Shown here in pieces: positions 5,088 through 38,740 of a stretch of DNA of 64,000 nucleotides. Within the stretch, counting starts at the first letter, position 1; every line of letters begins with the position of its first letter. The stretch spans positions 5,088,001-5,152,000 of the forward strand of contig OZ242005.1 in assembly GCA_965204725.1 (NCBI GenBank), given 5' to 3'. Both the position numbers and the translations under genes were made by a program. The notes beneath the pieces were generated by a model. It saw only the letters and a program-made list of their open reading frames with translations. It was not told where the DNA came from and did no database searches. Source of the DNA: Candidatus Latescibacterota bacterium (GTDB lineage: Bacteria; Latescibacterota; UBA2968; UBA8231).

Positions 5088-5915
5088 ATGAACCAAGACG
5101 AAAAGTATTTCTTCGACCTCAACGGCTACCTAGTCGTTCCCAACGTCTTGTCGGCCGAGGACATCGCGCTGGCCAACGAGGCCATTGATCGCCATGCCGA
5201 CCAGATCCACGAGCGCACCGGCGAGTTGTCGCTATCGGCGGGATCCAAGGCCCTTGAAGGGAGCACTGGACGCGGCGATCTGGGCGGCGCGCTCTCATGG
5301 CCCGACCCTTATGGCCGCCCCTTCCGCGACATGCTGGTCAACCCCAAGGTGGTGCCCTATCTACACGAGATGTTGGGCACGGGCTTCCGCCTCGACCACA
5401 ATCTCGGCATCATCACCATGCGTAAAGGGGCCGAAGGGCACCTGCTACACGGATCGTCCGGCCCCGGGTTTGACCGCCACCAGTACTACATCTTCAAAGA
5501 CAGCAAAATGCACAACGGCCTGACCGTGGCCGCCTATCAGCTCGCGGATGTCCGCGCGGGTGACGGGGGCTTGTGCCTAATCCCAGGCAGCCACAAGAGC
5601 AACTATCCCTGCCCGATGGCACTTCGACGCGGCGAGGCGTATCGCGAGTCCATCAAGCAGATTGCCTGCAACGCCGGCGACTGCGTCCTATTCACCGAGG
5701 CCACCACGCACGGGACCCTGCCTTGGACCGCCGACCACGACCGCCGCACCGCCCTCTTCCGCTTCTCACCGGGCAATCTCGCTTATGTGGCCCACGACTG
5801 GTCCGCAGACATGCTCGCCCTAATGACCGACGAGCAACGCAAAGTCCTCGAACCGCCTTATCATGCGCGATTGGACCGCCCCGTATTGGAACCTTCAACA
5901 AAACCCACAGCGTAG
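5088..5915 (+). CDS. Phytanoyl-CoA dioxygenase (PhyH) family protein
   Basis: FDLNGY start, GGLCLIPGSHK and HGTLPW motifs. Confidence 0.85.
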   Translation: MNQDEKYFFDLNGYLVVPNVLSAEDIALANEAIDRHADQIHERTGELSLSAGSKALEGSTGRGDLGGALSWPDPYGRPFRDMLVNPKVVPYLHEMLGTGFRLDHNLGIITMRKGAEGHLLHGSSGPGFDRHQYYIFKDSKMHNGLTVAAYQLADVRAGDGGLCLIPGSHKSNYPCPMALRRGEAYRESIKQIACNAGDCVLFTEATTHGTLPWTADHDRRTALFRFSPGNLAYVAHDWSADMLALMTDEQRKVLEPPYHARLDRPVLEPSTKPTA

Positions 5916-5924
5916 GGAAACCTC

Positions 5925-6218
5925 ATGTCCAAACGCAAAATCGTCGTCACCGGGGCCGCCGGGTACGTGGCCGGTCGCATGTTGCCGGCCCTAAAGGAAC
6001 GCTACGAAACCGTTCTGCTCGATGTGAAAACGAGCAATCGCCAAGGCGAAGCGGTCGCCGGAGTTCGCATCGCCGATCTGCTAGAGAAGGACCGCGATAC
6101 CTACCGGTTCTGGAGCTTGGCCAATGCCCGGCGCGAGATCGGGTACGCGCCCCAAGACGACAGCCAAGTGCGCTTTGCCGACAAAATCGCGGTCATCACG
6201 CGGGCGGCGCACGACTAG
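5925..6218 (+). pseudogene. NAD-dependent epimerase/dehydratase, internally deleted
   Basis: Only 97 aa. The Rossmann start VTGAAGYVA is joined directly to the family C-terminus RFWSLANARREIGYAPQDDS (compare the intact paralog 60094-60912); the YxxxK core is absent. Confidence 0.75.
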
Positions 6219-27425: not shown

Positions 27426-28292
27426 CTATGAGGCCAAAGGCCCGAATATGTCGTAGCCTTTGTTTCGTTTAGACCACATCCTCGCGTCTGCATATAACTT
27501 CGTCTGGTGAAAATCTTTGCTGTCATACGCGAGACGGAGCGCAATGCCTAGTACCTCAGGACCCGCAGTTTTCGATGACCGGCTTCCTAAAATTTTTCTC
27601 AAGGCAATGCCAAAGATCTCAATGAAGTCGTGCCCGCAGCAGATTTGATAGGGATCATCATTCATCTCATCTACAAGTTCCGACAATCTATTACTAACGT
27701 CTTTCTTATCTAAACACCGATTGCTAGTCAAAGCAAAAATATTACTTAGCATTTTGTCCTGATCTATTTCTAACGAATTGCGGTCAATGAAACGGTCAAA
27801 ATGAAGCCCTTCAAAGCGCAGGTGAAGGTTATCTGTCATAGACAAGTAGCGAAGATGACCTATAATCAAGGTTTTCTGTATCAGATCATCGCGTATTTCA
27901 CCTTCTTGATTTCGAAACTCACGAATTTTCTTTTCTGAACCTAGTTCAAGCAAAACTGCATCAAATGCCTTGGTTTTAATAATCATCATTTCGACGTCAT
28001 GATAGTCAGTGACAATCACATTTTGCGACTCCGGTAACGAACCGTCAATATGTCCAAAGTCTGCATCAACGATTCCCATAAAACCCTGTACACCGTTATA
28101 TGTCTCAAGAATCGCAACGGCGTTAAGGACTTTCTCCTTACCTCCAGCAGGAATAATCGGCATTTCTGAATTTTTAACAAATCGGTAGAAAAATCTTTCG
28201 TCCTTACTTCCTTCGAGGAGGAGGATAGGTCCCTTGTATTTGGCGCGTATAAGAAGAACTTCATTGGCTATTTCGTCGCCTGTCTGATCCAT
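27426..28292 (-). CDS. DUF4435 TOPRIM-like effector (PARIS AriB-like)
   Basis: LLLEG..D, GG...V, GIVDADF, D.E and GHD motifs; directly downstream of an ABC ATPase. Confidence 0.8.
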   Translation of the reverse strand: MDQTGDEIANEVLLIRAKYKGPILLLEGSKDERFFYRFVKNSEMPIIPAGGKEKVLNAVAILETYNGVQGFMGIVDADFGHIDGSLPESQNVIVTDYHDVEMMIIKTKAFDAVLLELGSEKKIREFRNQEGEIRDDLIQKTLIIGHLRYLSMTDNLHLRFEGLHFDRFIDRNSLEIDQDKMLSNIFALTSNRCLDKKDVSNRLSELVDEMNDDPYQICCGHDFIEIFGIALRKILGSRSSKTAGPEVLGIALRLAYDSKDFHQTKLYADARMWSKRNKGYDIFGPLAS

Positions 28293-28302
28293 AATGTTAG
28301 AA

Positions 28303-29634
28303 CTATCCTCCACCTAATAGATCGACCATGAGATCTCGCCGATCGTGAATGATCGATGGAGAATGAGTAGCTATAAGAAAATCAAGATCTGCTAACTCCG
28401 ATATTTTAGCAATATCCTCAAGAAATTTTCGCTGCCATGTGACATGAAGAGATAGTTCAGGTTCATCAATAAAAATCAGGGAACCCGGCTGTGCCTTGAA
28501 CAAAAGTTCGTACGTCAGGACAATTTCGTGCTGCTCACCAGAAGACAGTGCCCTTGGAGGCACAATAGACTCATCGTGAGCCGATTCAAAGATGAAACCC
28601 TTCTCTCTATCTACTTCAAATTTCTTATATGAGAAGCGTGAGTTGACAATATCTTTGAACAATTCCACTCGAAGGAGAAGCCAGTCGAAAACTTGTAGTT
28701 TCTTCTTAACATCGTCTAGATACGCCCATAAAACCTTTCGTTCACTATCTTCCAAATTTTCGGGATGGAGAGGAACAGGTGCCCCAGGAGCAATAAGACC
28801 AGACTGCATCAATCGATCTCTATATTTTGACTGACCATTATATTCTTCCCTTATGTGCTTTTCCGTCGCTTTCTTAGGAAGTTCCAGCTTCAAAAGTCGT
28901 CGAGGGAAAGAGCTATCTAAAGACGCTCCAAGTTCACCGGATTCTCGTTGGTACTTTTCTATTTGGGAGATCATATCCTCCGAGTATTGCTCTACCGTCA
29001 TCCGCTGTTGCACACGAACTCTTCTTCTATATCGAGGCACAGGTTCTTCGTCTTCTTCCTTATACCCTGTAAAGAGTCTCTGGGTTTCAAGAACCACAAT
29101 ATTAGTTTGTTCTAATAGATTTTCTATATTTTCTGGAATCGGGGTGATAGACTCACGAATATCAGAAGGTAGAAGATGTCCATAGGAGAGGATGACCTCG
29201 GCTAAAGACATTCTTCTGTCGGTTTTTTCATCGTACCATTCAGATAGACCAATTCGTTCTACATTGTCAATCATATCGTCTATCCTATTTTTTAGGTATC
29301 CGAGAGGATATTCCCTGAGTATTTTCTTATCTTCTAGCGATAGTGTATATTTGGTCCGTTTTTGCCCAAAATGGTAGATAAATTTCAACTCTTCTTTGGC
29401 TCGAATAACTGTCAGGCTACCTTTAGGCTTGAAGCGGATCACAATACGGTCAAAAGGAGTAACAAGCATTGAGAGAAACTGACGTTTGAAGAGATCGGAT
29501 ATAAGACGGAGAACCGTCGTCTTGCCGACTCCATTCGGTCCGTGGATTATCGTAATACGGTCATCTGTCTTCAGAGGTATCTTGTGATCAAAATACCCGA
29601 ACAGGGATCGAATTTCTATTTCCTTTATTTTCAT
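28303..29634 (-). CDS. AAA_15/AAA_21 ABC-type ATPase (PARIS AriA-like)
   Basis: HGPNGVGKT, LSSGEQ, IFIDEPELSLH..WQ and ATHSP; AT-rich. Confidence 0.85.
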   Translation of the reverse strand: MKIKEIEIRSLFGYFDHKIPLKTDDRITIIHGPNGVGKTTVLRLISDLFKRQFLSMLVTPFDRIVIRFKPKGSLTVIRAKEELKFIYHFGQKRTKYTLSLEDKKILREYPLGYLKNRIDDMIDNVERIGLSEWYDEKTDRRMSLAEVILSYGHLLPSDIRESITPIPENIENLLEQTNIVVLETQRLFTGYKEEDEEPVPRYRRRVRVQQRMTVEQYSEDMISQIEKYQRESGELGASLDSSFPRRLLKLELPKKATEKHIREEYNGQSKYRDRLMQSGLIAPGAPVPLHPENLEDSERKVLWAYLDDVKKKLQVFDWLLLRVELFKDIVNSRFSYKKFEVDREKGFIFESAHDESIVPPRALSSGEQHEIVLTYELLFKAQPGSLIFIDEPELSLHVTWQRKFLEDIAKISELADLDFLIATHSPSIIHDRRDLMVDLLGGG

Positions 29635-29702
29635 GTCTGCCTCCGCATAAGTATACTCTATTTCCCTTCTTTTTACAAATCCCTCCACTCCTCCTCTATC
29701 CC

Positions 29703-29980
29703 TCACACCTGAACATCTTCATCACCTCGGACCTCAATATGATTGATCGCCTTCACGGCGAATGCAGCCGACTTCGGCTTGGCGAATGGACGGGATGCGT
29801 CGCTTCTGAGGTCACCGGGCTTCGCGGCTAACTTCGGCTTTTAGCGTCGTCTTTAGCGACTTGTACGATCTCGCTGTCTCTTGAGCGACTGTCCACCCTC
29901 GTCAGATCCCAATGCTTGACCGAGCACTCGTATGACGAGTTGAGGACAGGTTGGTTAAAGACTAGATTCGTCAGAGTCAT
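29703..29980 (-). pseudogene. Scar of a Type III-like R-M operon: Res N-terminus joined to Mod C-terminus
   Basis: AGGAGG plus ATG 29980 gives ...FNQPVLNSSYE...HWDL (Res start, PILNSPYE..HWEL-like). Shifted frames then give YKSLKTTLKAEV.REA, SDASRPFAKPKS..FAVKAINH and EVMKMFR (Mod end). Confidence 0.7.
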
Positions 29981-30124: not shown

Positions 30125-31213
30125 ATGAAAAATCCCATCCGCATCGGCGTCGTCGGCTGCGGTGCCGTCGCCCAAGTCCAGCACCTGCCCAACCTCACCG
30201 CGCTCAAGGACCTGTTTTCCGTAGAGATGGTCTGCGACCTCTCGCCGCGCTTGGCGCAGACGGTGGCGCGGGAGTTTTACGTGCCGCACCACACCAGCGA
30301 CTGGCGGGCGCTGCTCGCCGCAGACCTCGACGCCGTGCTCTTGTGCCACACCGACCCTAAGACCGAGATCGCGGTCGCCGCTTTTGAGGCCGGCAAGCAT
30401 GTCTTTATCGAAAAGCCGGTCTGCTTCTCGCTGCCAGAAGCCGACCGGATCATGGTCGCTCGGCAGGCGGCGGGCACGGTGGGCTTGGCCGGTTATATGA
30501 AGGTGTACGATCCGGCCTTTGAGGCGGCCGCTCGCGCAACCGCCGACATGGCCGCGATCCGCTTTGTGCAGATCCACCACCTGCACACCAACAACGCGCA
30601 TCACCTCGCGCACTTCCGCCTGCACCGCGCTGACGACCTGCCCGTTGATGCCGTTGAGCAGACGCGCATGGCACGTGCGGCGGCCGTGCGCGAAGCCATC
30701 GGCGAGGTCTCCGCCGATGTGCAGGCTGCCTTTGGCCACCTCGCCGGCAGCATGATTCACGACCTCTACGGCCTGCGCGCCATCATGGGCGTACCCGAGC
30801 GGGTCGCCAGCACTGAAATCTGGTACGAAGGCTGGGGCGTCAGCACCGTGCTCGTTTATGCAAACGGTGCGCGATGTGCGGCCACTTGGGTTGAGCTGAA
30901 GGATGTGCGCGATTTCAAGGAGACTCTCGAAGTTTGCGGTGACGACTGCCGCGTCCTGCTTTCTTATCCGACCGGCTTTTCGCGGGGGATCCTCTCCACC
31001 TTGGAGATTCAGACCCTCGACGAGGCCGGGGAGGCCATCGTCCACCGCCCGGCCATCGCGTGGGAAGGCCCCTTCGTCCGCGAGTTAAAGCACTTCTACG
31101 CCTGCATCGCCGAGGGAGCGAAGCCGCGTACTCCCTTGGAAGAGGCCCGCTACGACATCGCCCTAATCATCGACATCGTCAAAGCCTATAGGGGAAGGGA
31201 TATACTGAGTTAG
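30125..31213 (+). CDS. Gfo/Idh/MocA oxidoreductase
   Basis: IGVVGCG, AGKHVFIEKP and MIHD motifs. Confidence 0.9.
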   Translation: MKNPIRIGVVGCGAVAQVQHLPNLTALKDLFSVEMVCDLSPRLAQTVAREFYVPHHTSDWRALLAADLDAVLLCHTDPKTEIAVAAFEAGKHVFIEKPVCFSLPEADRIMVARQAAGTVGLAGYMKVYDPAFEAAARATADMAAIRFVQIHHLHTNNAHHLAHFRLHRADDLPVDAVEQTRMARAAAVREAIGEVSADVQAAFGHLAGSMIHDLYGLRAIMGVPERVASTEIWYEGWGVSTVLVYANGARCAATWVELKDVRDFKETLEVCGDDCRVLLSYPTGFSRGILSTLEIQTLDEAGEAIVHRPAIAWEGPFVRELKHFYACIAEGAKPRTPLEEARYDIALIIDIVKAYRGRDILS

Positions 31214-31257
31214 TTAGCAGATTTTCCGGGACACTCTTAACAAGGCGTTCATGCGAT

Positions 31258-31728
31258 ATGACTTCTGAAACACAGTCTATTGGCGCTCTGACCAAGAGCA
31301 GCCTGCTGCCCGCTTGGCAGCCCCAGATCGAGAGCGCGAGTACGCACGAGGCGATCACTGCCGTCTTCCGATCGTTTGGACTCGATGCGATCGCGGACCG
31401 GCTCAATTACCTCCGACAGCTTGTCGAGGACGACCCTGACGAGTCGCCCATGGCGATTGAATCGTTGAGAGCGATGGCCCTTTTTCTTATGAGCGAACGA
31501 CAATTAGCCGCTCCACAAATCGGCGTCACCCCGGACGGATTGGCGCAAATTGAGTGGCGGTTCCCAACCAACGGTATTCTGGCCATGGAGTTCCTGTCCT
31601 CTGGTCTGATCCGGTTCGCCGCCATCTCTGCGCCGGCCCGACCCGGAGTCGAACGGCTGAGCGTCAATGGGACGTTGCCTAAAGATGCGGCCTTGGAAGC
31701 GATCCGGCCGTTCACCGCACGTCTATAG
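31258..31728 (+). CDS. Hypothetical protein (P-x-I-xxx-PDG-xxx-IEW family); putative antitoxin
   Basis: 156-aa ORF with RL..L..L...D, PQIGVTPDGLAQIEW and L.MEF...G.I.F; ends 5 bp before the next gene. Confidence 0.65.
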   Translation: MTSETQSIGALTKSSLLPAWQPQIESASTHEAITAVFRSFGLDAIADRLNYLRQLVEDDPDESPMAIESLRAMALFLMSERQLAAPQIGVTPDGLAQIEWRFPTNGILAMEFLSSGLIRFAAISAPARPGVERLSVNGTLPKDAALEAIRPFTARL

Positions 31729-31733
31729 CTTCG

Positions 31734-32162
31734 ATGATGGCCCAACCGCTTCCCGACGACGACCACATATCACGGTACTGCAAGCCATCGGCTATCAATG
31801 AGAGTGGCATGCCCATGGTGAACGCCTTCAGCCTACGACAGGGAGAAGAGCACCTCTCGGTCAACTGGCTTGAGTACTTCGATGAGACCGACTTGAACGC
31901 CGCCGTTGAGCGGGTTCGAGAGGTGTTTCGTAGCAAGGATTTCCAAGTACGACCGAATGGCCGATTTGCGGTGCTAAACGTCGGGGTTGTAAAGACAGCT
32001 ATCCACGAAGTGGTCGGGCGTCGCTTGGACATAGATCATCTGCCCCTCAGCGATGACAAGTCCCACGCCGGTATTCTCGGATATGCTTCGGAGGACTTGG
32101 CGGTTGCCGTAGAGCTAGCAGCACTCGTCACATCCCAAGACGTACACCCCGCCATACCTTGA
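31734..32162 (+). CDS. Hypothetical protein with ADP-ribosyltransferase-like (R...S-V...H) motif spacing; putative toxin
   Basis: 142 aa: ISRYCKP, AF, LSVNW, FAVLNV and HLP...SHAGI. The fold assignment is inferred. Confidence 0.55.
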   Translation: MMAQPLPDDDHISRYCKPSAINESGMPMVNAFSLRQGEEHLSVNWLEYFDETDLNAAVERVREVFRSKDFQVRPNGRFAVLNVGVVKTAIHEVVGRRLDIDHLPLSDDKSHAGILGYASEDLAVAVELAALVTSQDVHPAIP

Positions 32163-32276
32163 TCAATTTGGCCTCGTACCTGATAGGATGGCACTGCTCG
32201 GGGCGGTCAAACAGCGCGGTCGCTGACCATTACTACGTCCGCTCCGTGTAGCCCGTTTTCGTGCGTCGAGCATCTT

Positions 32277-32882
32277 TCACTCAAACAGTTGCTGTAGCCA
32301 ATTAGCGAATGCTGTGCTGAGTGTTCCATCTACGTGCAAATCGTGTGCGCCAATGGCGGCACCCATTTGTCTAGGGTCTTCTCGCGTCGCCAGCCAAGCG
32401 TGGATCTTGGCTCGCAGTATCTTCTTCTCGGCAAACTTTCGGTCGGCCCTTGGAATGCCGTCAATGTAGTTCTCGGATAGTGGCCATACTGGATCGTCGG
32501 CGGGGATCATCTCTGAGACGAAATTTTCGAGTTCGCCGGGTGATGTGTTGTTGGGCATTAACCAGATGCCGACGCGGGGGGTGCTGTCTATAATGGTGCC
32601 AGTGCGTTCAGGACTGTTGGGGACCTCGATATTCTCCGCTCGAAGCCTATTCGCCACAGCACTCCAGCGGGCGTCCAAATCGTCGTTTGCTTCCACGAGG
32701 ATGCCGACGGCTTTGCGACCAGGAGCCATAATTTCCGAACCTATACCTTCGAGAAGCACTGTTATTCCATCTTTATCCTGAATGTAGAATTCTGGCATCG
32801 CTTGATGGCGATTACAGAGTTGTAGAACAACATGCTTGTCGTCTGCCCCTTCAACGAGAAGAACGCGGTCATTATTATCCAT
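32277..32882 (-). CDS. DUF3226 TOPRIM-like protein
   Basis: LLVEG.DD, GILVEANDD, GIWLMPNN..PGELE.F and KILRAKIHAWLA; downstream of an ABC ATPase. Confidence 0.8.
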   Translation of the reverse strand: MDNNDRVLLVEGADDKHVVLQLCNRHQAMPEFYIQDKDGITVLLEGIGSEIMAPGRKAVGILVEANDDLDARWSAVANRLRAENIEVPNSPERTGTIIDSTPRVGIWLMPNNTSPGELENFVSEMIPADDPVWPLSENYIDGIPRADRKFAEKKILRAKIHAWLATREDPRQMGAAIGAHDLHVDGTLSTAFANWLQQLFE

Positions 32883-32915
32883 CTACTTACCTCACCTCAA
32901 TATGTTTTTGAGAAA

Positions 32916-34313
32916 TTACCTTACTTCAATGTGTTGTTTGGCGGCGGCTTTGAGATTGCGCTCTGAATACTCGACCGCCCACATCTCCTCATCTTTCCGC
33001 TCAAGACGCACGAGTGCCCCTTCGACTTCCTCGCATTCGGCTGTTGCTTGTGCGAAGCCGCGTACACAGTCAAAGCTGTGCGTCGTCGCAATGACCTGTA
33101 CGTTGTTTGCGTGGGCGGTCTTAAAGACCATGCGCCAGAAATCGGGCTGGACGGAATGGTGAATGCCGTTTTCGACTTCGTCGATAAGTAGGAAGCCGTC
33201 CCGGCTATTGGCTAGTGCTAAGGCAGTGCCGGCTAGATGCAGTGCTCCGTCGCCTAAACTTTGCAAAGGGACGGGACGAGCTTGCCCACGGAGCTTTACG
33301 ACCACCCGCTGAATATATTCGACCTCAGGTTTCTTAGATGATACGTCTGATACGTCGGTGCGGATAACCGCCACGCGCTCTAAGTCGCTGCCGAGTATCA
33401 ATCTCATTGTCTGCATCGCTCGGTCCTCATCATCCGTCAACGCAATGGCATTCCAGAACCGTACGATTTCTTTATCGCTCAACAGGCCCGGCCCCAAAGG
33501 TTGACATCCTATTTGGGATGGCCATTCAGCTTCGAACAAGAAATTATATGAGTACAGATATACACTACCGCCATAACGCTCTACGGTTCTGGCCGCATCC
33601 GATCCTTGGATGGGAAGAACCCATGGAAGGATTTGTTCAGTGTCTTGAAATACGACTTTGAACGCCTGAGTATAGCCCCTCTGAACAGAGAAAGGTAGGA
33701 TTTGTTCGATGCTAGAAGCCTGCTCATCGTCTAGCGGAGTCTCCTCAATCCTGAGTTGTCCTATGTCGCTTTTTGGACCGATTGAGATGCGGGCACATCT
33801 CGACACATCTCGTCCGTGGAATAGGGCCGCAAAATCGGGTACAAATTTTCTGTTCACAGTGTGATTTTCAGTGGTAGCGATAGCGTACTCTTGGCGGCTT
33901 TCCAGTAGTTCGGACAGTACGGTATAGTGACCACGCGCCGCATAGACCCGGACGGCGTCTAAAACGGTCGTCTTGCCGACGCTGTTCTTGCCTGCCAGCA
34001 GCGTCACGCGGCCCAACCGCTCAATGGAAAGCTCATTGATTCCCCGAAACCCCGTTATCGACAGGCTCGGAAGATGTAAGTGGTTATCGCGTCGTTCTTG
34101 GGACATGGCGTTAGCACCTTCTTTTGAGGGCGAGAGTTTTGAACTGACGGAATGTGCTGCTGAATCTTGGTCGCTGTTTTGAGAGATCCACGCCTTGGCA
34201 GCCTCGCGTCGTTTTTCACGCGCCTTGGTTCCACGATTGATTTCGCTCGGACTTGGCGCACTTTCTTTTATGTACTTTTGATAGTCAAATTCTGTATCTT
34301 GTGTAGTATTCAT
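32916..34313 (-). CDS. AAA_21 ABC-type ATPase with an in-frame N-terminal BrnA-like stub (ATPase alone may start at 34106)
   Basis: GFRGI, AGKNSVGKT, SLGDG, LLIDEVENGIH and TTHS. The frame is open from ATG 34313 (overlapping brnT) through a second ATG at 34106. Confidence 0.8.
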   Translation of the reverse strand: MNTTQDTEFDYQKYIKESAPSPSEINRGTKAREKRREAAKAWISQNSDQDSAAHSVSSKLSPSKEGANAMSQERRDNHLHLPSLSITGFRGINELSIERLGRVTLLAGKNSVGKTTVLDAVRVYAARGHYTVLSELLESRQEYAIATTENHTVNRKFVPDFAALFHGRDVSRCARISIGPKSDIGQLRIEETPLDDEQASSIEQILPFSVQRGYTQAFKVVFQDTEQILPWVLPIQGSDAARTVERYGGSVYLYSYNFLFEAEWPSQIGCQPLGPGLLSDKEIVRFWNAIALTDDEDRAMQTMRLILGSDLERVAVIRTDVSDVSSKKPEVEYIQRVVVKLRGQARPVPLQSLGDGALHLAGTALALANSRDGFLLIDEVENGIHHSVQPDFWRMVFKTAHANNVQVIATTHSFDCVRGFAQATAECEEVEGALVRLERKDEEMWAVEYSERNLKAAAKQHIEVR

Positions 34314-34569
34314 CGAGCCACCTTCCTTCTGCATCAAATGCGGTGATTAGACGATAGAGCGGCAAATCTTCTTCGGAGCAAACTATGGCTAATATCCGAC
34401 CACTGGCGGTTGCCCCTATCCGAATCCACCGATCTTCATGTCCTGCTGGGTCTGGGGATTCGTATCCGCTTGGATCATCAAATGCGGAGACGGCCTCGTA
34501 AAACTGGACTTGGTGCTTCTCTTTGACTTCTTGATATTTGTCTTCATCCCATATAAATCCGATATCCAT
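34285..34569 (-). CDS. BrnT-family toxin (ribonuclease)
   Basis: F.WDEDK....KH.V.F.EA...F.DP, E.RW..IG and R.ITA motifs. Confidence 0.8.
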   Translation of the reverse strand: MDIGFIWDEDKYQEVKEKHQVQFYEAVSAFDDPSGYESPDPAGHEDRWIRIGATASGRILAIVCSEEDLPLYRLITAFDAEGRWLDEYYTRYRI

Positions 34570-34705: not shown

Positions 34706-37700
34706 CTACACCGCGACCCTCGTCTCCGTATCCCCCGCTGTTAGCGCATTCATATACGCCAGCGTCATATCGCGGGTGCGGTATGTTCCGAAGGCGGCTT
34801 CGTCGTTGCGGCGGACGATGGGGAAGGTGTTGAGGATGTATTGGGCGTCGTCGCGCGACAGGCAGTAGAGGTGGAAGTAGAGGGCGTCGAGGCGGGCGCG
34901 TAGGTGGCGGCGTTCCTCTTCATCCCATGAGAAGGGCGGGCTGTCGTAGCCGAGGTCGCGGGCGAAAGGGGCCATGTCGTGGGCAGTGTACGTGAGGCGG
35001 AGGACGTGGTCGCGGATCAGGTCTCGGGCGGTTTTGTTGCCGAATTTTTGGTCGTATGCGTCGAGGGCGATGACGGGGAGTTGCTCGACGATGTACCAAT
35101 TCAGATGAGTGCCTTGAGCCTTCTGTCTCGCAACAAAGTCCACACATATAGCATTCAGGTTTGCCATGAGATACGCGGTGGCCATGGGGTCGGCACTGAG
35201 GAGTAGAGGCACCGTGTTTCCACAACCCGCCCATGGGACGATGGAAGCAATTACTGTTCTCTCATTTGTAGGATTGGTGATGTCGCGGAAACCCAATGCG
35301 TACCCGCGACTTTGGGGCAAAGCCGCCTCTACGTTGTGAGCCGGCACCCAATACTGTGTTTGGGGTAGGAAACTAGGGTCTGCGTGTTGCGCTTGGGTTA
35401 CTTCCTCGCTGAGATACGGGTTGTGTGTGCTCTCCGGGTTGACGCGAACCGAGTTGGCGCGGTGGTCAAAATGCCAGATCATCCGGCCCTGATACAGCGG
35501 CAAATACAGCTCCTGACCTTTCTTCCAGCGATTGCCCTCAACGGGATAGAAACCTTCTGCATTGAGTTGTTCCGCTGTCCTGAAGAGATGAGAGTCGTTG
35601 GCCATGTGAAACATCGTAGCGTACCGCACCGGCCACACGCGCTTTTCTTCGCCATCCGAACGATCCACTAGCACGGGATGCTGCTCGTAGATGCGGCGTG
35701 TGATCTCCGCGTCCCTCCGGCGGCGGAACACGGGCGCGGTGCCGGTATTCGGATTCACGCGGGCGAAGTCGTCCGGCGTCAGCGGGAAGCAGCGGTCTTT
35801 GTCATGGATCGTTTTCGTGTCGCGGAGGAAGAAGGCGCATTCAGTTTGGTCGAATCGGCGCTCTTCGCCGCCCAAGATGAGAGCGCAGAATTTGAAGGAT
35901 GCGTGAACATCCTTGAAGAAAATTTTCTTGTTCTCAAAATCGAACACGCCGCCCACCCGCCCTGTGGTTGAAACCGACTTAAAAAACCGGGCCGCAGTCT
36001 TGTCGGCGTAAATGCCCGACGGCGTCAACAAGCCGACAAAGCCATCCGGCTTCACCAAGCGTAGCGTCCGCTCGACGAACAGCGAATAGAGATTGATGTC
36101 GCCGCCACCCAACAGTGGGTAGTAGCCGGAGGTACGAACCACATGACCGAGCTTGTCGGAGTGTTCCTTGGCCGCGTCGAACTCAATGGCCAGTGGGTCG
36201 TCCTGTCGGCGGAGTTTCTGGATGGCCGTGCGTCGTATCGCTGCCGTCGGAGCACGGGCCAGTTCCGGGGCGCGACTGGCAAACCACTCAACCTCTTGCA
36301 ACTTGATGCGATCCCACGGCGGATTGCCGATGATGGCGTCGAAGCCGCCCTCTGGACACTTCGCTTGCCAGTGCTGCCACACGCCGGGGAACGCCACCTC
36401 CCAGTGCAAAAAGTGCTCGCGTTGAGCCGTAGCGCAGGCCTCATGCCATAACTCGGCGAAACCCAACCATGCCGCGTCGCTGGTGTCGGGCAAAAGCTCG
36501 TCTATGCGCTCCGGCCCCCGGGCGAGCAGGGTGTACGCACTGGCCTGCTGGCGGCCGAGGGTGGTAACCAGCGGCCCTTCCAAAGAAGCGAGGTTTTTCT
36601 TCGTCAGGCCAGCCGTTACCCAGCGCAAGCCGCATAGGAAATCCAGCAAGCCGCGCAGGTCGGCTGTCGTCGCCTCCACATGGCCGAACAGTGACGTGGA
36701 CTCGCGCACCTCGGCCACGTCGGTGTCGGACATTTCCTCAATGCGCTGCATTCCTCCGGTGGCGGCTTCGGCTCCGGCAATGGCACTGGTAGCGAACAAG
36801 CCGCCGAGCCGGTTCAACTCGTCCAGAGCGTCGGCAACGCGCAGGCCGATGAGTGAGTCGCCGCAACGCAGGTGGTGGTCGAGGAAAGACAGCGGTGCGC
36901 CTACGGTGAAGCTGTGTAGCCATAGCGACACTTTCGCCAATTCGACGGTGAGCGGGTTCTTATCGACACCATAGATGCAGCGTTTGAGGACCATGCGGCG
37001 GATAATGGCTTGGTCGGTGAGTTGAACCTCATCGAGAATCCAGTTGGACGCCTTGGCTTGTTGGAGGATGGCCTCGCGGGTCGCCGCCACCCGCTTGACT
37101 AACGGCGACACGTATTTGCCATCAAGCCAGTCAGGAATCGCTGGGACGCGCTCGACCAAGGCGGCGATGGCGTCGGCGAGGAAATCTACAGCGGTAACGA
37201 GGAAGTGGCCGCTGCCCATCGCAGGGTCCACGACCTTGAGGTGCAAAACCGCCTCGGCCGGATCGAGGGCTTCTAGCTCGGCCTTCCGCCTGTTCTTGGG
37301 ATGGCGAGTATCCTTGAGTTCGGCCGCCCTTGCTGCAAAGGCGGAGAACCGCTCGTCAATGAGGGGCTTGAGCGTCCGCTCCACGACCAGATCGACGAGG
37401 GCTTGCGGCGTGTAAAAACTGCCGCTGTCCTTACGGGCATAAGGGTTGGGGCGGATGACGATTTTGCCGCCGTTGTCGCGGACAGGTTCGCGTTCGAGGA
37501 GTTGTTCGTAAATGGATCCGAGTTGTTGTACGGACATGTCGCGGTAGTTGACAAAGCGAGACGTACCAGTGGTGTCGGTGTGGCTCATGTCGTAGATGAT
37601 CGGCGCGATGGCGGCGTCGGCGAGGCGAGTGGTTTCCAACAGCGGCGCGGCATCCGGTGCGAACAGGCCGCCGTTGTAGGGAGGCAGGCCAATGGCTTGG

Positions 37701-38716
37701 TCTCCTTGGTCGATGAGCCGGAACAGGTTAGCAAGGTGGTCGTAGTAGTTGGTCGCCAGCGTGGAGAACGGGTCGCGCTGGTTCATCCTCGCGGCAATGT
37801 CGTCTCGCACTCGTTTCCGCAAACCATAGTCGTCGTAGCGCGCATCGTGGACTGGCAGCAGCCCCCGGTCCTCGGCGTAGAGCACAAACAGCAAGCGGTA
37901 GAGGAAGATTAGCGCCGCATCCCGGCTCTCGGCGAGGCTTTGACCCGACGCCTCGGCCAGCGCATCGACGAGGCGGGGAAACACGCGCTCAAACACCACC
38001 CCGGAAAGGTCTTGCGCGACCTGTTCCTCATAGCGGCGTCCCTCGGCCAGTGCCGCTTCAAGGAACGTGACCGTGGACCCGTGCCGGAGAATGAAAGACT
38101 CGCGGCGGAACAGCAGGTGAAAGACGCGGAGATCGTCTTCGCGGTCGGGCGCGAGCAGGTCGCCCAAGTCGGCTTCAAAGTAGCCGCTGGCTCGCGGCCG
38201 GGCGCGGTAATCGTAGAGCCGCCAGACCCGGCCGTTGGTCAAGATGCCCCAGCGAATGCGCCCCTCCGACTCAATCTCAGCCGTCGCTAAGTATCGGAGA
38301 ATTTGGCCGTGCGGCGTTCCGCTCCGCTCCCGGCCGTCAAGGGAAAGCCCAAAGCGTTTGCTCTCTTCAACGACGGTGGCGTGACGAAGGCGATCGCCGG
38401 CATTGCGCTCGGCAGCGGCTTGCTGCTTGGCAGCGGCGTCGGCGAAAAGCAGATGGTCGGGAATGTCCTCGTTGTGCGCGACGCCCTGCTGCGGCAAATA
38501 ATCCGCCCATCCGAGCAACGCCAAAACCGGACGGATTAGGTCCTGCTCAGTGGCCGCTTCGTTAGGCTCTTGGGAACGGCTGAGAGCGTCGTACCGCTGT
38601 TGAACGCCACCCCTAAACGCAGCAAACGCCTCCGGCTGGGAGCAAGACGCTTGCCACTCCGCCGTGGCCTTTATGCCGTCAGTGAGAAAGTAATGGGTGA
38701 ACAATTGGCCGGGCAT
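34706..38716 (-). CDS. Type IIG (Eco57I-like) fused restriction-modification enzyme
   Basis: PD...EESK nuclease motif, ILTNG..WRLY, GSFYTP, DPAMGSGHFL, YGVD.N, GNPPW and a C-terminal target-recognition domain. Confidence 0.92.
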   Translation of the reverse strand: MPGQLFTHYFLTDGIKATAEWQASCSQPEAFAAFRGGVQQRYDALSRSQEPNEAATEQDLIRPVLALLGWADYLPQQGVAHNEDIPDHLLFADAAAKQQAAAERNAGDRLRHATVVEESKRFGLSLDGRERSGTPHGQILRYLATAEIESEGRIRWGILTNGRVWRLYDYRARPRASGYFEADLGDLLAPDREDDLRVFHLLFRRESFILRHGSTVTFLEAALAEGRRYEEQVAQDLSGVVFERVFPRLVDALAEASGQSLAESRDAALIFLYRLLFVLYAEDRGLLPVHDARYDDYGLRKRVRDDIAARMNQRDPFSTLATNYYDHLANLFRLIDQGDQAIGLPPYNGGLFAPDAAPLLETTRLADAAIAPIIYDMSHTDTTGTSRFVNYRDMSVQQLGSIYEQLLEREPVRDNGGKIVIRPNPYARKDSGSFYTPQALVDLVVERTLKPLIDERFSAFAARAAELKDTRHPKNRRKAELEALDPAEAVLHLKVVDPAMGSGHFLVTAVDFLADAIAALVERVPAIPDWLDGKYVSPLVKRVAATREAILQQAKASNWILDEVQLTDQAIIRRMVLKRCIYGVDKNPLTVELAKVSLWLHSFTVGAPLSFLDHHLRCGDSLIGLRVADALDELNRLGGLFATSAIAGAEAATGGMQRIEEMSDTDVAEVRESTSLFGHVEATTADLRGLLDFLCGLRWVTAGLTKKNLASLEGPLVTTLGRQQASAYTLLARGPERIDELLPDTSDAAWLGFAELWHEACATAQREHFLHWEVAFPGVWQHWQAKCPEGGFDAIIGNPPWDRIKLQEVEWFASRAPELARAPTAAIRRTAIQKLRRQDDPLAIEFDAAKEHSDKLGHVVRTSGYYPLLGGGDINLYSLFVERTLRLVKPDGFVGLLTPSGIYADKTAARFFKSVSTTGRVGGVFDFENKKIFFKDVHASFKFCALILGGEERRFDQTECAFFLRDTKTIHDKDRCFPLTPDDFARVNPNTGTAPVFRRRRDAEITRRIYEQHPVLVDRSDGEEKRVWPVRYATMFHMANDSHLFRTAEQLNAEGFYPVEGNRWKKGQELYLPLYQGRMIWHFDHRANSVRVNPESTHNPYLSEEVTQAQHADPSFLPQTQYWVPAHNVEAALPQSRGYALGFRDITNPTNERTVIASIVPWAGCGNTVPLLLSADPMATAYLMANLNAICVDFVARQKAQGTHLNWYIVEQLPVIALDAYDQKFGNKTARDLIRDHVLRLTYTAHDMAPFARDLGYDSPPFSWDEEERRHLRARLDALYFHLYCLSRDDAQYILNTFPIVRRNDEAAFGTYRTRDMTLAYMNALTAGDTETRVAV

Positions 38717-38740
38717 ATCCAATCCTCTTAGCTGAACTCC

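Follow-up and report, generated by a model that had tools for sequence, protein, structure and literature searches.

Each of the ADP-ribosyltransferase (ART)-fold toxin/antitoxin (TA) pairs DarTG, ParST, MbcTA, Xre-RES and CmdTAC has brought a new target or NAD+ chemistry to light. According to a review, the three ART motifs sit on strands 1, 2 and 5, and DarT carries a catalytic Glu and acts on DNA (PMC8120803). CmdTAC (PD-T4-9) combines an mRNA ART toxin, an antitoxin and a SecB-like chaperone controlling the antitoxin, and functions in abortive-infection defence (PMC11618068). 'KptA/Tpt1-like toxins' figure only as a hypothesis in PMC11833690. To these systems the pair described here adds a large family that is unnamed in the libraries, together with a partner that is unrelated and a third gene that is optional.

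Locus architecture

The window, meaning the whole stretch of 64,000 nucleotides that was analysed, contains the pair and its surroundings as follows.

27426-29706, minus strand: AriA/AriB-like pair, farther upstream
30125-31213, plus strand: GFO_IDH_MocA oxidoreductase, upstream of the pair
31214..31257, plus strand: spacer 5' of gene 1, 44 bases; presumed operon start, without recognisable signals
31258..31728, plus strand: gene 1 (G1), ORF of 156 aa; predicted antitoxin- or immunity-like binding partner of gene 2
31729..31733, plus strand: spacer between gene 1 and gene 2, 5 bases
31734..32162, plus strand: gene 2 (G2), ORF of 142 aa; stand-alone minimal ART-fold protein, predicted NAD+-using toxin
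32277-32882, minus strand: DUF3226/PDC-M38B, downstream of the pair
32916-34337, minus strand: PDC-M38A ATPase, downstream
34285-34569, minus strand: BrnT, downstream
34706-38722, minus strand: Type IIG/DrmMI-like enzyme, 1,338 aa, downstream

A first-pass annotation had described two small co-oriented ORFs 5 bp apart, lying between a metabolic gene and a DUF3226/ATPase/BrnT/Type IIG block, and the coordinates and the setting proved correct, with both ORFs on the plus strand. The motifs that it had singled out were likewise present, both in gene 2 (ISRYCKP at residues 12-18, AF at 31-32, LSVNW at 41-45, and H102-L-P104 followed by S110-H111-A-G-I114) and in gene 1 (EDDPDESP at 57-64 and PQIGVTPDGLAQIEW at 86-100). 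GC content was 0.56-0.57 in the pair compared to 0.61-0.65 in the flanking backbone, and far lower (0.39-0.43) in the AriAB-like region. A scan of positions 31000-32500 found neither a sigma-70-like promoter nor an intrinsic terminator.

The database gene call for gene 2 in this genome (P0006) is 115 aa long and begins at an internal Met; the 142-aa start is the better one, because relatives with 80-87% identity cover all 142 residues. Gene 1 and gene 2 are both genuine genes under selection.

Sequence families

Searches recovered 321 relatives of gene 2 among 379 candidates and 228 relatives of gene 1 among 458 candidates, both at E ≤ 0.001. An exhaustive search of cluster representatives at the same cut-off placed 1,218 clusters (50% identity) in the gene 2 family, with 492 representatives retained at E ≤ 1e-10 and 22 at E ≤ 1e-30. 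Relatives in public sources were called 'hypothetical protein' or had no name at all, and the ESM Atlas returned unnamed clusters only for both genes.

No Pfam match to gene 2 was obtained at E ≤ 1, nor any match in NCBIfam, PADLOC or PHROGs, and none of 115 diverse family members gave a meaningful Pfam match. Gene 1 had no match in Pfam, NCBIfam or PHROGs, and a weak one in PADLOC 2.0 (PDC-M32A, E = 0.013); PHROGs returned nothing for the 13 proteins searched. PDB sequence searches with profiles A1, A2 and A3 gave nothing meaningful. The initial statement that neither gene belongs to a named family therefore agrees with the libraries, which name neither. Full texts of the literature yielded no description of the gene 2 family, which is weak evidence for a family without a searchable name or accession.

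Predicted fold of gene 2

A first model of gene 2, based on an alignment of 29 close relatives, was unusable (pLDDT 50.5). The model built from 115 diverse sequences reached a pLDDT of 97.5 and a pTM of 0.91, and shows six strands with helices between them, arranged as in the ART core: a split sheet, most strands followed by a helix, superposable on solved ARTs.

Foldseek against the PDB returned nothing at E ≤ 0.001, and the best 14 matches were all Tpt1/KptA (E 0.06-0.22, TM 0.35-0.40). In a viral structure library a single unnamed protein, A0A9E7QQI2 (149 aa, E 1e-4), was followed by a giant-virus Tpt1 (E 0.055). The structural neighbours in a search of 48,161 chains were dominated by Tpt1/KptA, Tse2, RES toxins, DarT, ParT, MbcT and toxins of the cholera/pertussis type. 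Below the top matches of that search came CopC, Tne2, TreX, Xre-RES, pierisin, PltA, mosquitocidal toxin and pertussis toxin, followed by MbcT, TreTu, heat-labile enterotoxin, SidE, ParT and CARDS toxin. Nineteen of its best 30 matches were ARTs by entry title or paper, and most of the others we take to be ART-fold proteins.

Collectively, the modelling supports, as a high-confidence prediction, an ART-superfamily fold for gene 2, as the first-pass annotation had suggested; ART, RES and Tse2 structures were all among the neighbours. Gene 2 aligned to residues ~85-180 only of the Tpt1/KptA chains. On the model, gene 2 would be a minimal ART-fold protein of ~140 aa, equivalent to the NAD+-binding lobe of Tpt1/KptA without the RNA-binding lobe.

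Conserved residues and putative active site of gene 2

Conservation across the 115 diverse members was as follows, with residues of the motifs singled out at first pass among the best conserved.

F32: 115/115 members
W45: 114/115 members
S42: 113/115 members
R14: 112/115 members
H111: 112/115 members
C16: 111/115 members
E47: 110/115 members
N44: 107/115 members
S110: 106/115 members
A31: 104/115 members
H11: 103/115 members
P104: 103/115 members
H102: 93/115 members
D108: 88/115 members, N in 17
Position 40: Y in 64, H in 18 and F in 8 of 115 members

The model places H11, R14 and C16 on strand 1, S42 and N44 on strand 2 (with W45 and E47 on this strand and just after it), and S110-H111 at the start of strand 5. 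The site had originally been interpreted as an R-S-x layout of NAD-using toxins, with His in place of Glu. Much of this stood: the Arg, the Ser-x-Asn and the His are near-invariant and lie on the strands that bear ART motifs, R14 on strand 1 and S42-V-N44 on strand 2 may correspond to the residues of R-S-E toxins, and the His occupies the place of the Glu. The nearest fold, however, is that of Tpt1/KptA, of the H-H-h type, and not that of an R-S-E toxin. At the start of strand 5, S110-H111 is found rather than a catalytic Glu, the nearest acidic residue being D108. The near-invariant polar set as a whole matches no described ART triad.

Two readings of the modelled site are possible. It may have an R-S-x layout in which His replaces the catalytic Glu, or, via H11 and position 40, an H-[Y/H]-x layout as in Tpt1 and CC0527. 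The near-invariant C16 belongs to none of the ART motifs listed in the review PMC8120803, and a site that lacks the classical Glu and has an invariant Cys may perform new biochemistry. The first-pass annotation had overlooked both this Cys (111/115) and a third gene, G0, described below. Gene 2 has a pI of 4.98 (family median 5.81, 87 of 115 members acidic), which makes a protein or small-molecule target likelier than a nucleic acid.

Gene 1 and the predicted complex

The conserved core of gene 1 spans approximately residues 20-156 and consists of a helical N-terminal half with the acidic DDPDE loop and a beta-rich C-terminal half; S69, W100 and F112 are invariant in alignment A4 (66 sequences). 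Many relatives are ~245 aa long, with ~90 extra and poorly conserved N-terminal residues, while short forms of 156 aa are also conserved. A DNA-binding domain is usual, though not universal, in type II antitoxins, and no Pfam match of the HTH, RHH or AbrB kind, hence no sign of such an autoregulatory domain, was detected in gene 1 or in eight long forms. Gene 1 itself also gave no macrodomain match in Pfam. Its pI of 4.86 (family median 4.88, 61 of 66 members acidic) further argues against DNA binding.

The first-pass annotation had proposed an immunity or sensor role for gene 1 and suggested modelling the two proteins together. The modelled complex scored an ipSAE of 0.91 in all three runs, compared to 0.02 for the best of three controls; 116 of 157 solved complexes attain the ipSAE mark applied, as do 2 of 215 mismatched pairs, a calibration that is rough here owing to custom alignments. 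The runs gave 89-95 contacts with at least 96% contact agreement between them, and a partner pLDDT of 91-92. These values support a predicted binding of gene 1 to gene 2. The interface involves gene 2 residues 17-38, 70-73, 88-93 and 119-131, and gene 1 residues 48-63 (including the acidic loop), 87-111 and 119-139. None of the listed contacts involves the near-invariant site residues of gene 2. In Tpt1, residues immediately following the first strand of the NAD+ lobe contact adenine and phosphate (PMC6333775). In the modelled complex, gene 1 covers mainly the equivalent stretch of gene 2, which includes A31, F32 and R35. By analogy with Tpt1, gene 1 might thereby block the access of NAD+ to gene 2.

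Conservation of the pair and a third gene

Scanning a single genome from each species produced 158 gene 2 matches, of which 78 loci were kept, spread, by record title or phylum label, over eight phyla (Latescibacterota, Acidobacteriota, Chloroflexota, Pseudomonadota, Binatota, Rhodothermota, Spirochaetota and Bacteroidota). With profile HMMs, 77 of the 78 loci showed gene 1 immediately upstream of gene 2 and in the same orientation, the sole exception being L073, where gene 2 lies at a contig start. In many relatives the two genes overlap by 4 bases, for example at 5264-6004 and 6001-6426 in L001. Conservation of the pair, which had been proposed as a check on the initial reading, is thus well documented, and the small, adjacent, co-oriented genes are kept together as in type II TA systems.

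Clustering of flanking ORFs revealed a third family, G0 (~215-230 aa), which 39 of the 78 loci carry immediately 5' of gene 1 and in the same orientation. It has no match in Pfam, NCBIfam, PADLOC or PHROG. G0 is absent from the window, and a search of the window's genome (94% complete) with one G0 protein as query did not find it. The long forms of gene 1 occur mostly in loci with G0.

In the gene 2 tree the window copy groups with two G0-bearing copies from Latescibacterota (SH-aLRT 83, in a weakly resolved tree), and the presence of G0 changes ~12 times across the tree. Taken together, these two observations make the window's two-gene form look like one of several losses, even though the short form of gene 1 is conserved in its own right. 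The tree is based on 141 columns and poorly resolved, with 31 of 73 inner branches open. It clusters by phylum, with 19 changes against a minimum of 7 and a shuffled mean of 43, which neither proves nor excludes transfers.

A candidate fusion, P0391 (410 aa), contained a gene 1 match in its first half only, followed by a full gene 2, and was read as a frameshifted read-through; no case of gene 2 truly fused to another domain emerged.

Profile comparisons with hhalign gave a probability of 0.3% for gene 2 versus Tpt1 (25 natural Tpt1 sequences), 0.1% for gene 2 versus RES (7 sequences) and 0.0% for gene 1 versus DUF2384 (9 sequences). RES against Tpt1, run as a control, likewise came out at 0.1%, so that such comparisons can rule out close membership but not kinship within a superfamily. 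Comparisons of gene 1 with Tpt1 and gene 2, and of G0 with gene 1, gene 2 and Tpt1, were also negative. Two family assignments of gene 2 were considered and rejected: Tpt1/KptA (PF01885), given the lack of a Pfam match and of an RNA lobe in addition to the low hhalign value, and RES (PF08808) with a DUF2384 or Xre partner, for which neither a RES Pfam match nor the corresponding partner was found.

Distribution and genomic neighbourhood

The module was detected in 16 of 151 sampled genomes of the phylum (the window's own included). Within the genus, 7 of 22 further genomes carry it, at very different levels of similarity. The neighbourhood was surveyed in 58 of the 78 loci (six near-duplicates and 14 loci chosen at random were left out) by taking the nearest flanking ORF on each side, as longest-ORF calls of at least 150 aa, 114 ORFs in all. 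Most were unrelated housekeeping genes, and 10 of the 114, in nine loci, were transposases or integrases.

Tandem copies were also observed, with three pairs in L058 and two each in L054, L068 and L075. Gene 2 appears to be broken in L050, L065, L070 (by a 2.3-kb insertion) and L071, and gene 1 in L050 and L078, with assembly errors a possible cause. Patchy occurrence, varied flanks, transposases, and tandem and broken copies together describe the behaviour of a mobile, self-sufficient cassette. Searches of plasmid and phage records by tblastn, with a single protein as query, gave no match.

The defence-island link is real in the window and modest elsewhere. Five of the 11 PADLOC matches among neighbours were discarded as look-alikes from housekeeping genes or IS elements (EndoIII in three loci, IstB and an amino-acid transporter). 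The credible defence genes comprised a PtuA-like gene, DrmC, OloA, OloB, a GmrSD-like gene and a restriction enzyme with its control protein. The anti-phage role originally proposed for the pair is weakly supported by this count, which amounts to 6 of 114 neighbours in the 58 other loci; a role in phage defence is possible, with only the context in the window and these few neighbours elsewhere in its favour.

Interpretation and alternatives

On balance we lean towards reading the locus as a self-contained, horizontally mobile two-gene module of TA type, in which a new minimal ART-fold enzyme would be held inactive by a new and unrelated partner. What the analysis shows is the pair, its conservation, a fold predicted with high confidence and a predicted complex; NAD+ use, toxicity, the mode of neutralisation and any part in phage defence are inferences. 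NAD+ would be bound by gene 2 in the cleft between strands 1, 2 and 5, lined by R14/H11, C16, S42, N44 and S110-H111, and the enzyme would then either transfer ADP-ribose to a cellular target or destroy NAD+, in both cases halting growth. Gene 1, translated just before gene 2, would bind it one-to-one through its beta-rich C-terminal half and acidic loop, covering in gene 2 both residues 17-38, which follow strand 1, and the C-terminal helix (119-131). If the Tpt1 analogy holds, residues 17-38 form the part of the NAD+ site that faces adenine and phosphate, and the enzyme would stay inactive for as long as gene 1 is bound. G0 and the longer gene 1 in half of the relatives probably add a layer of control, with the window representing a two-gene variant.

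A bolder extension of the TA reading is unlikely as a whole, if attractive. Gene 2 would found a new ART branch derived from the Tpt1/KptA NAD+ lobe, with a Glu-less site of Arg/His, Ser-x-Asn, Ser-His and Cys performing an ART chemistry not yet described, and would give the 'KptA/Tpt1-like toxins' hypothesised in PMC11833690 their first actual instance. The full form would be a three-protein switch in which G0 detects a signal or keeps the extended gene 1 stable, and the toxin is freed once that gene 1 is lost.

Among the rival explanations, a non-toxic two-subunit enzyme fares best, although we consider it unlikely. Gene 2 would then be a housekeeping or accessory handler of NAD+ or ADP-ribose, be it a small-molecule ART like Arr or DUF952/CC0527 or an enzyme of RNA-end processing like Tpt1, and gene 1 (with G0 where present) would be its specificity or regulatory subunit. 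The patchy occurrence within a single genus (7/22), the tandem arrays, broken copies and frequent transposase neighbours amid otherwise variable flanks do not suit such an enzyme. Moreover, the window's genome already encodes a full Tpt1, and the structural neighbours other than Tpt1 are overwhelmingly toxins.

Somewhat less credence is due to a variant within the TA frame, in which gene 2, in the manner of RES/MbcT or Tne toxins, breaks down NAD+ by glycohydrolase or phosphorylase activity and transfers no ADP-ribose to a target. The best structural matches are transferases, profile similarity to RES is lacking (0.1%) and gene 1 is unrelated to the DUF2384 partners (0.0%). A different chemistry centred on C16 with H111 or H102 (thiol hydrolase, deamidase or transferase), or a non-enzymatic ART-fold toxin, as Tse2 has reportedly been proposed to be, is improbable, as all structural neighbours of known chemistry use NAD+.

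The pair would also put to the test the proposal that Tpt1-like ARTs can be toxins, in a family spread over at least eight, mostly uncultured, phyla. The small size of both proteins (142 and 156 aa) should make expression, mutagenesis and structural work easy.

Comparison with described systems

Tpt1/KptA, an RNA 2'-phosphotransferase, possesses an N-terminal winged-helix RNA lobe and an R-H-R-R tetrad, whereas gene 2, being only 142 aa long, is without both; it is also acidic, accompanied by gene 1 and of patchy occurrence. Elsewhere the genome of the window encodes a genuine Tpt1 along with two RES proteins and a canonical DUF2384-RES pair; gene 2 occurs in a single copy. Xre-RES, MbcT-MbcA and ParT-ParS differ from the present pair in their conserved toxin residues and in their DUF2384 antitoxins, to which gene 1 shows no relation.

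No sequence similarity was detected between gene 2 and the Tse2-Tsi2 type VI effector/immunity pair of P. aeruginosa, the gene order of which is presumably reversed relative to the present pair, where the partner comes first; no secretion genes were seen among the neighbours of the pair. In DarT-DarG, the antitoxin DarG undoes the modification as a macrodomain hydrolase. Gene 1 gave no macrodomain match, and gene 2 differs from DarT in being acidic and in lacking such a catalytic Glu.

The three-gene G0-G1-G2 form, with its poorly conserved extension of gene 1, invites comparison with CmdTAC. No SecB match was obtained for G0 in Pfam, and a survey of 61 genomes of the phylum turned up no SecB genes, which left no profile to compare with G0. 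PADLOC gave no match for G0 or gene 2 and no convincing one for gene 1, and the window copy is without G0. CmdT has an H-Y-[EDQ] triad, from which the motif of gene 2 differs, the order of the genes is not the same, and the gene 1 extension lies at the N-terminus and not at the C-terminus. Of the three-part ART systems described so far CmdTAC comes closest, yet it differs from the present one in motif, gene order and chaperone.

Genomic context of the pair in related loci

Flanking open reading frames were compared across the 78 related loci that had been recovered by matches to gene 2, the ADP-ribosyltransferase-fold protein. In half of them (39 of 78) a third gene, here called G0, lies directly 5′ of gene 1, which encodes the predicted binding partner (e.g. 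L001:4584–5267). G0 encodes a protein of ~ 215–230 aa, 4-base overlaps are frequent, and the gene 1 accompanying it is of a longer form, whose N-terminal extension is poorly conserved. G0 is an unnamed family for which no library supplied a name, and it is absent from the window.

In four loci from Pseudomonadales and other Gammaproteobacteria (L012, L017, L019 and L022), the pair occupies a fixed place, 3′ of a same-strand ORF of ~ 890–930 aa. A domain scan of this upstream ORF, covering L012, L019 and L022, identified PPDK_N and PEP-utilizers domains in all three, and a short-chain dehydrogenase gene lies after the pair in L012 and L019. The constancy of genomic place suggests that the pair has been inherited vertically within this clade.

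Tandem arrays of the pair were also observed, with three pairs in L058 (2022–6417) and two in each of L054, L068 and L075. Five further loci carry apparently broken copies, all of them from metagenome assemblies, such that sequencing errors are possible:

Apparently broken copies of the pair
L070:3611–6363, gene 2 split by a 2.3-kb insertion
L071:6001–6376, gene 2 lacking residues 36–69
L065:6001–6327, gene 2 cut after residue 110
L050:5816–6381, gene 2 frameshifted and gene 1 truncated
L078:5597–5993, gene 1 frameshifted

Neighbouring defence genes

Defence-related genes near the pair in the window are as follows:

Defence-related genes in the window
27426–29706, minus strand, AriB-like DUF4435 gene and AriA-like ATPase, a PARIS-like pair
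32277–34337, minus strand, PDC-M38 candidate defence pair (PADLOC models), DUF3226 protein (E = 7.8e-38) and ATPase (E = 4.2e-76)
34285–34569, minus strand, BrnT toxin gene

With a GC content of 0.39–0.43 versus 0.61–0.65 in the backbone, the AriB-like/AriA-like genes look like a recent foreign insertion. No BrnA partner of BrnT was recognised. The PDC-M38 ATPase match starts only at residue 89 of a 473-aa ORF; because the first 88 residues, just downstream of the BrnT gene, gave no match and overlap its end, this stretch might conceal a small antitoxin gene beside BrnT.

Occurrence in public sequencing runs

At least half of the words sampled from window positions 31200–32200 were present in each of five public runs from three studies. 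Two of these runs, both from one study, were labelled sponge metagenome (word shares of 0.94 and 0.51).

Other ADP-ribosyltransferase-fold proteins

The window's genome also encodes full-length Tpt1/KptA, together with a canonical DUF2384-RES toxin-antitoxin pair and a second RES protein (entry positions G000:C1:1075909–1076513 and G000:C1:1962862–1963353). Among viral structures, the fold of gene 2 was found in BFVD entry A0A9E7QQI2, an unnamed 149-aa protein (Foldseek E = 1e-4, TM = 0.53, identity 15%). This viral protein may either belong to the gene 2 family or mimic it.
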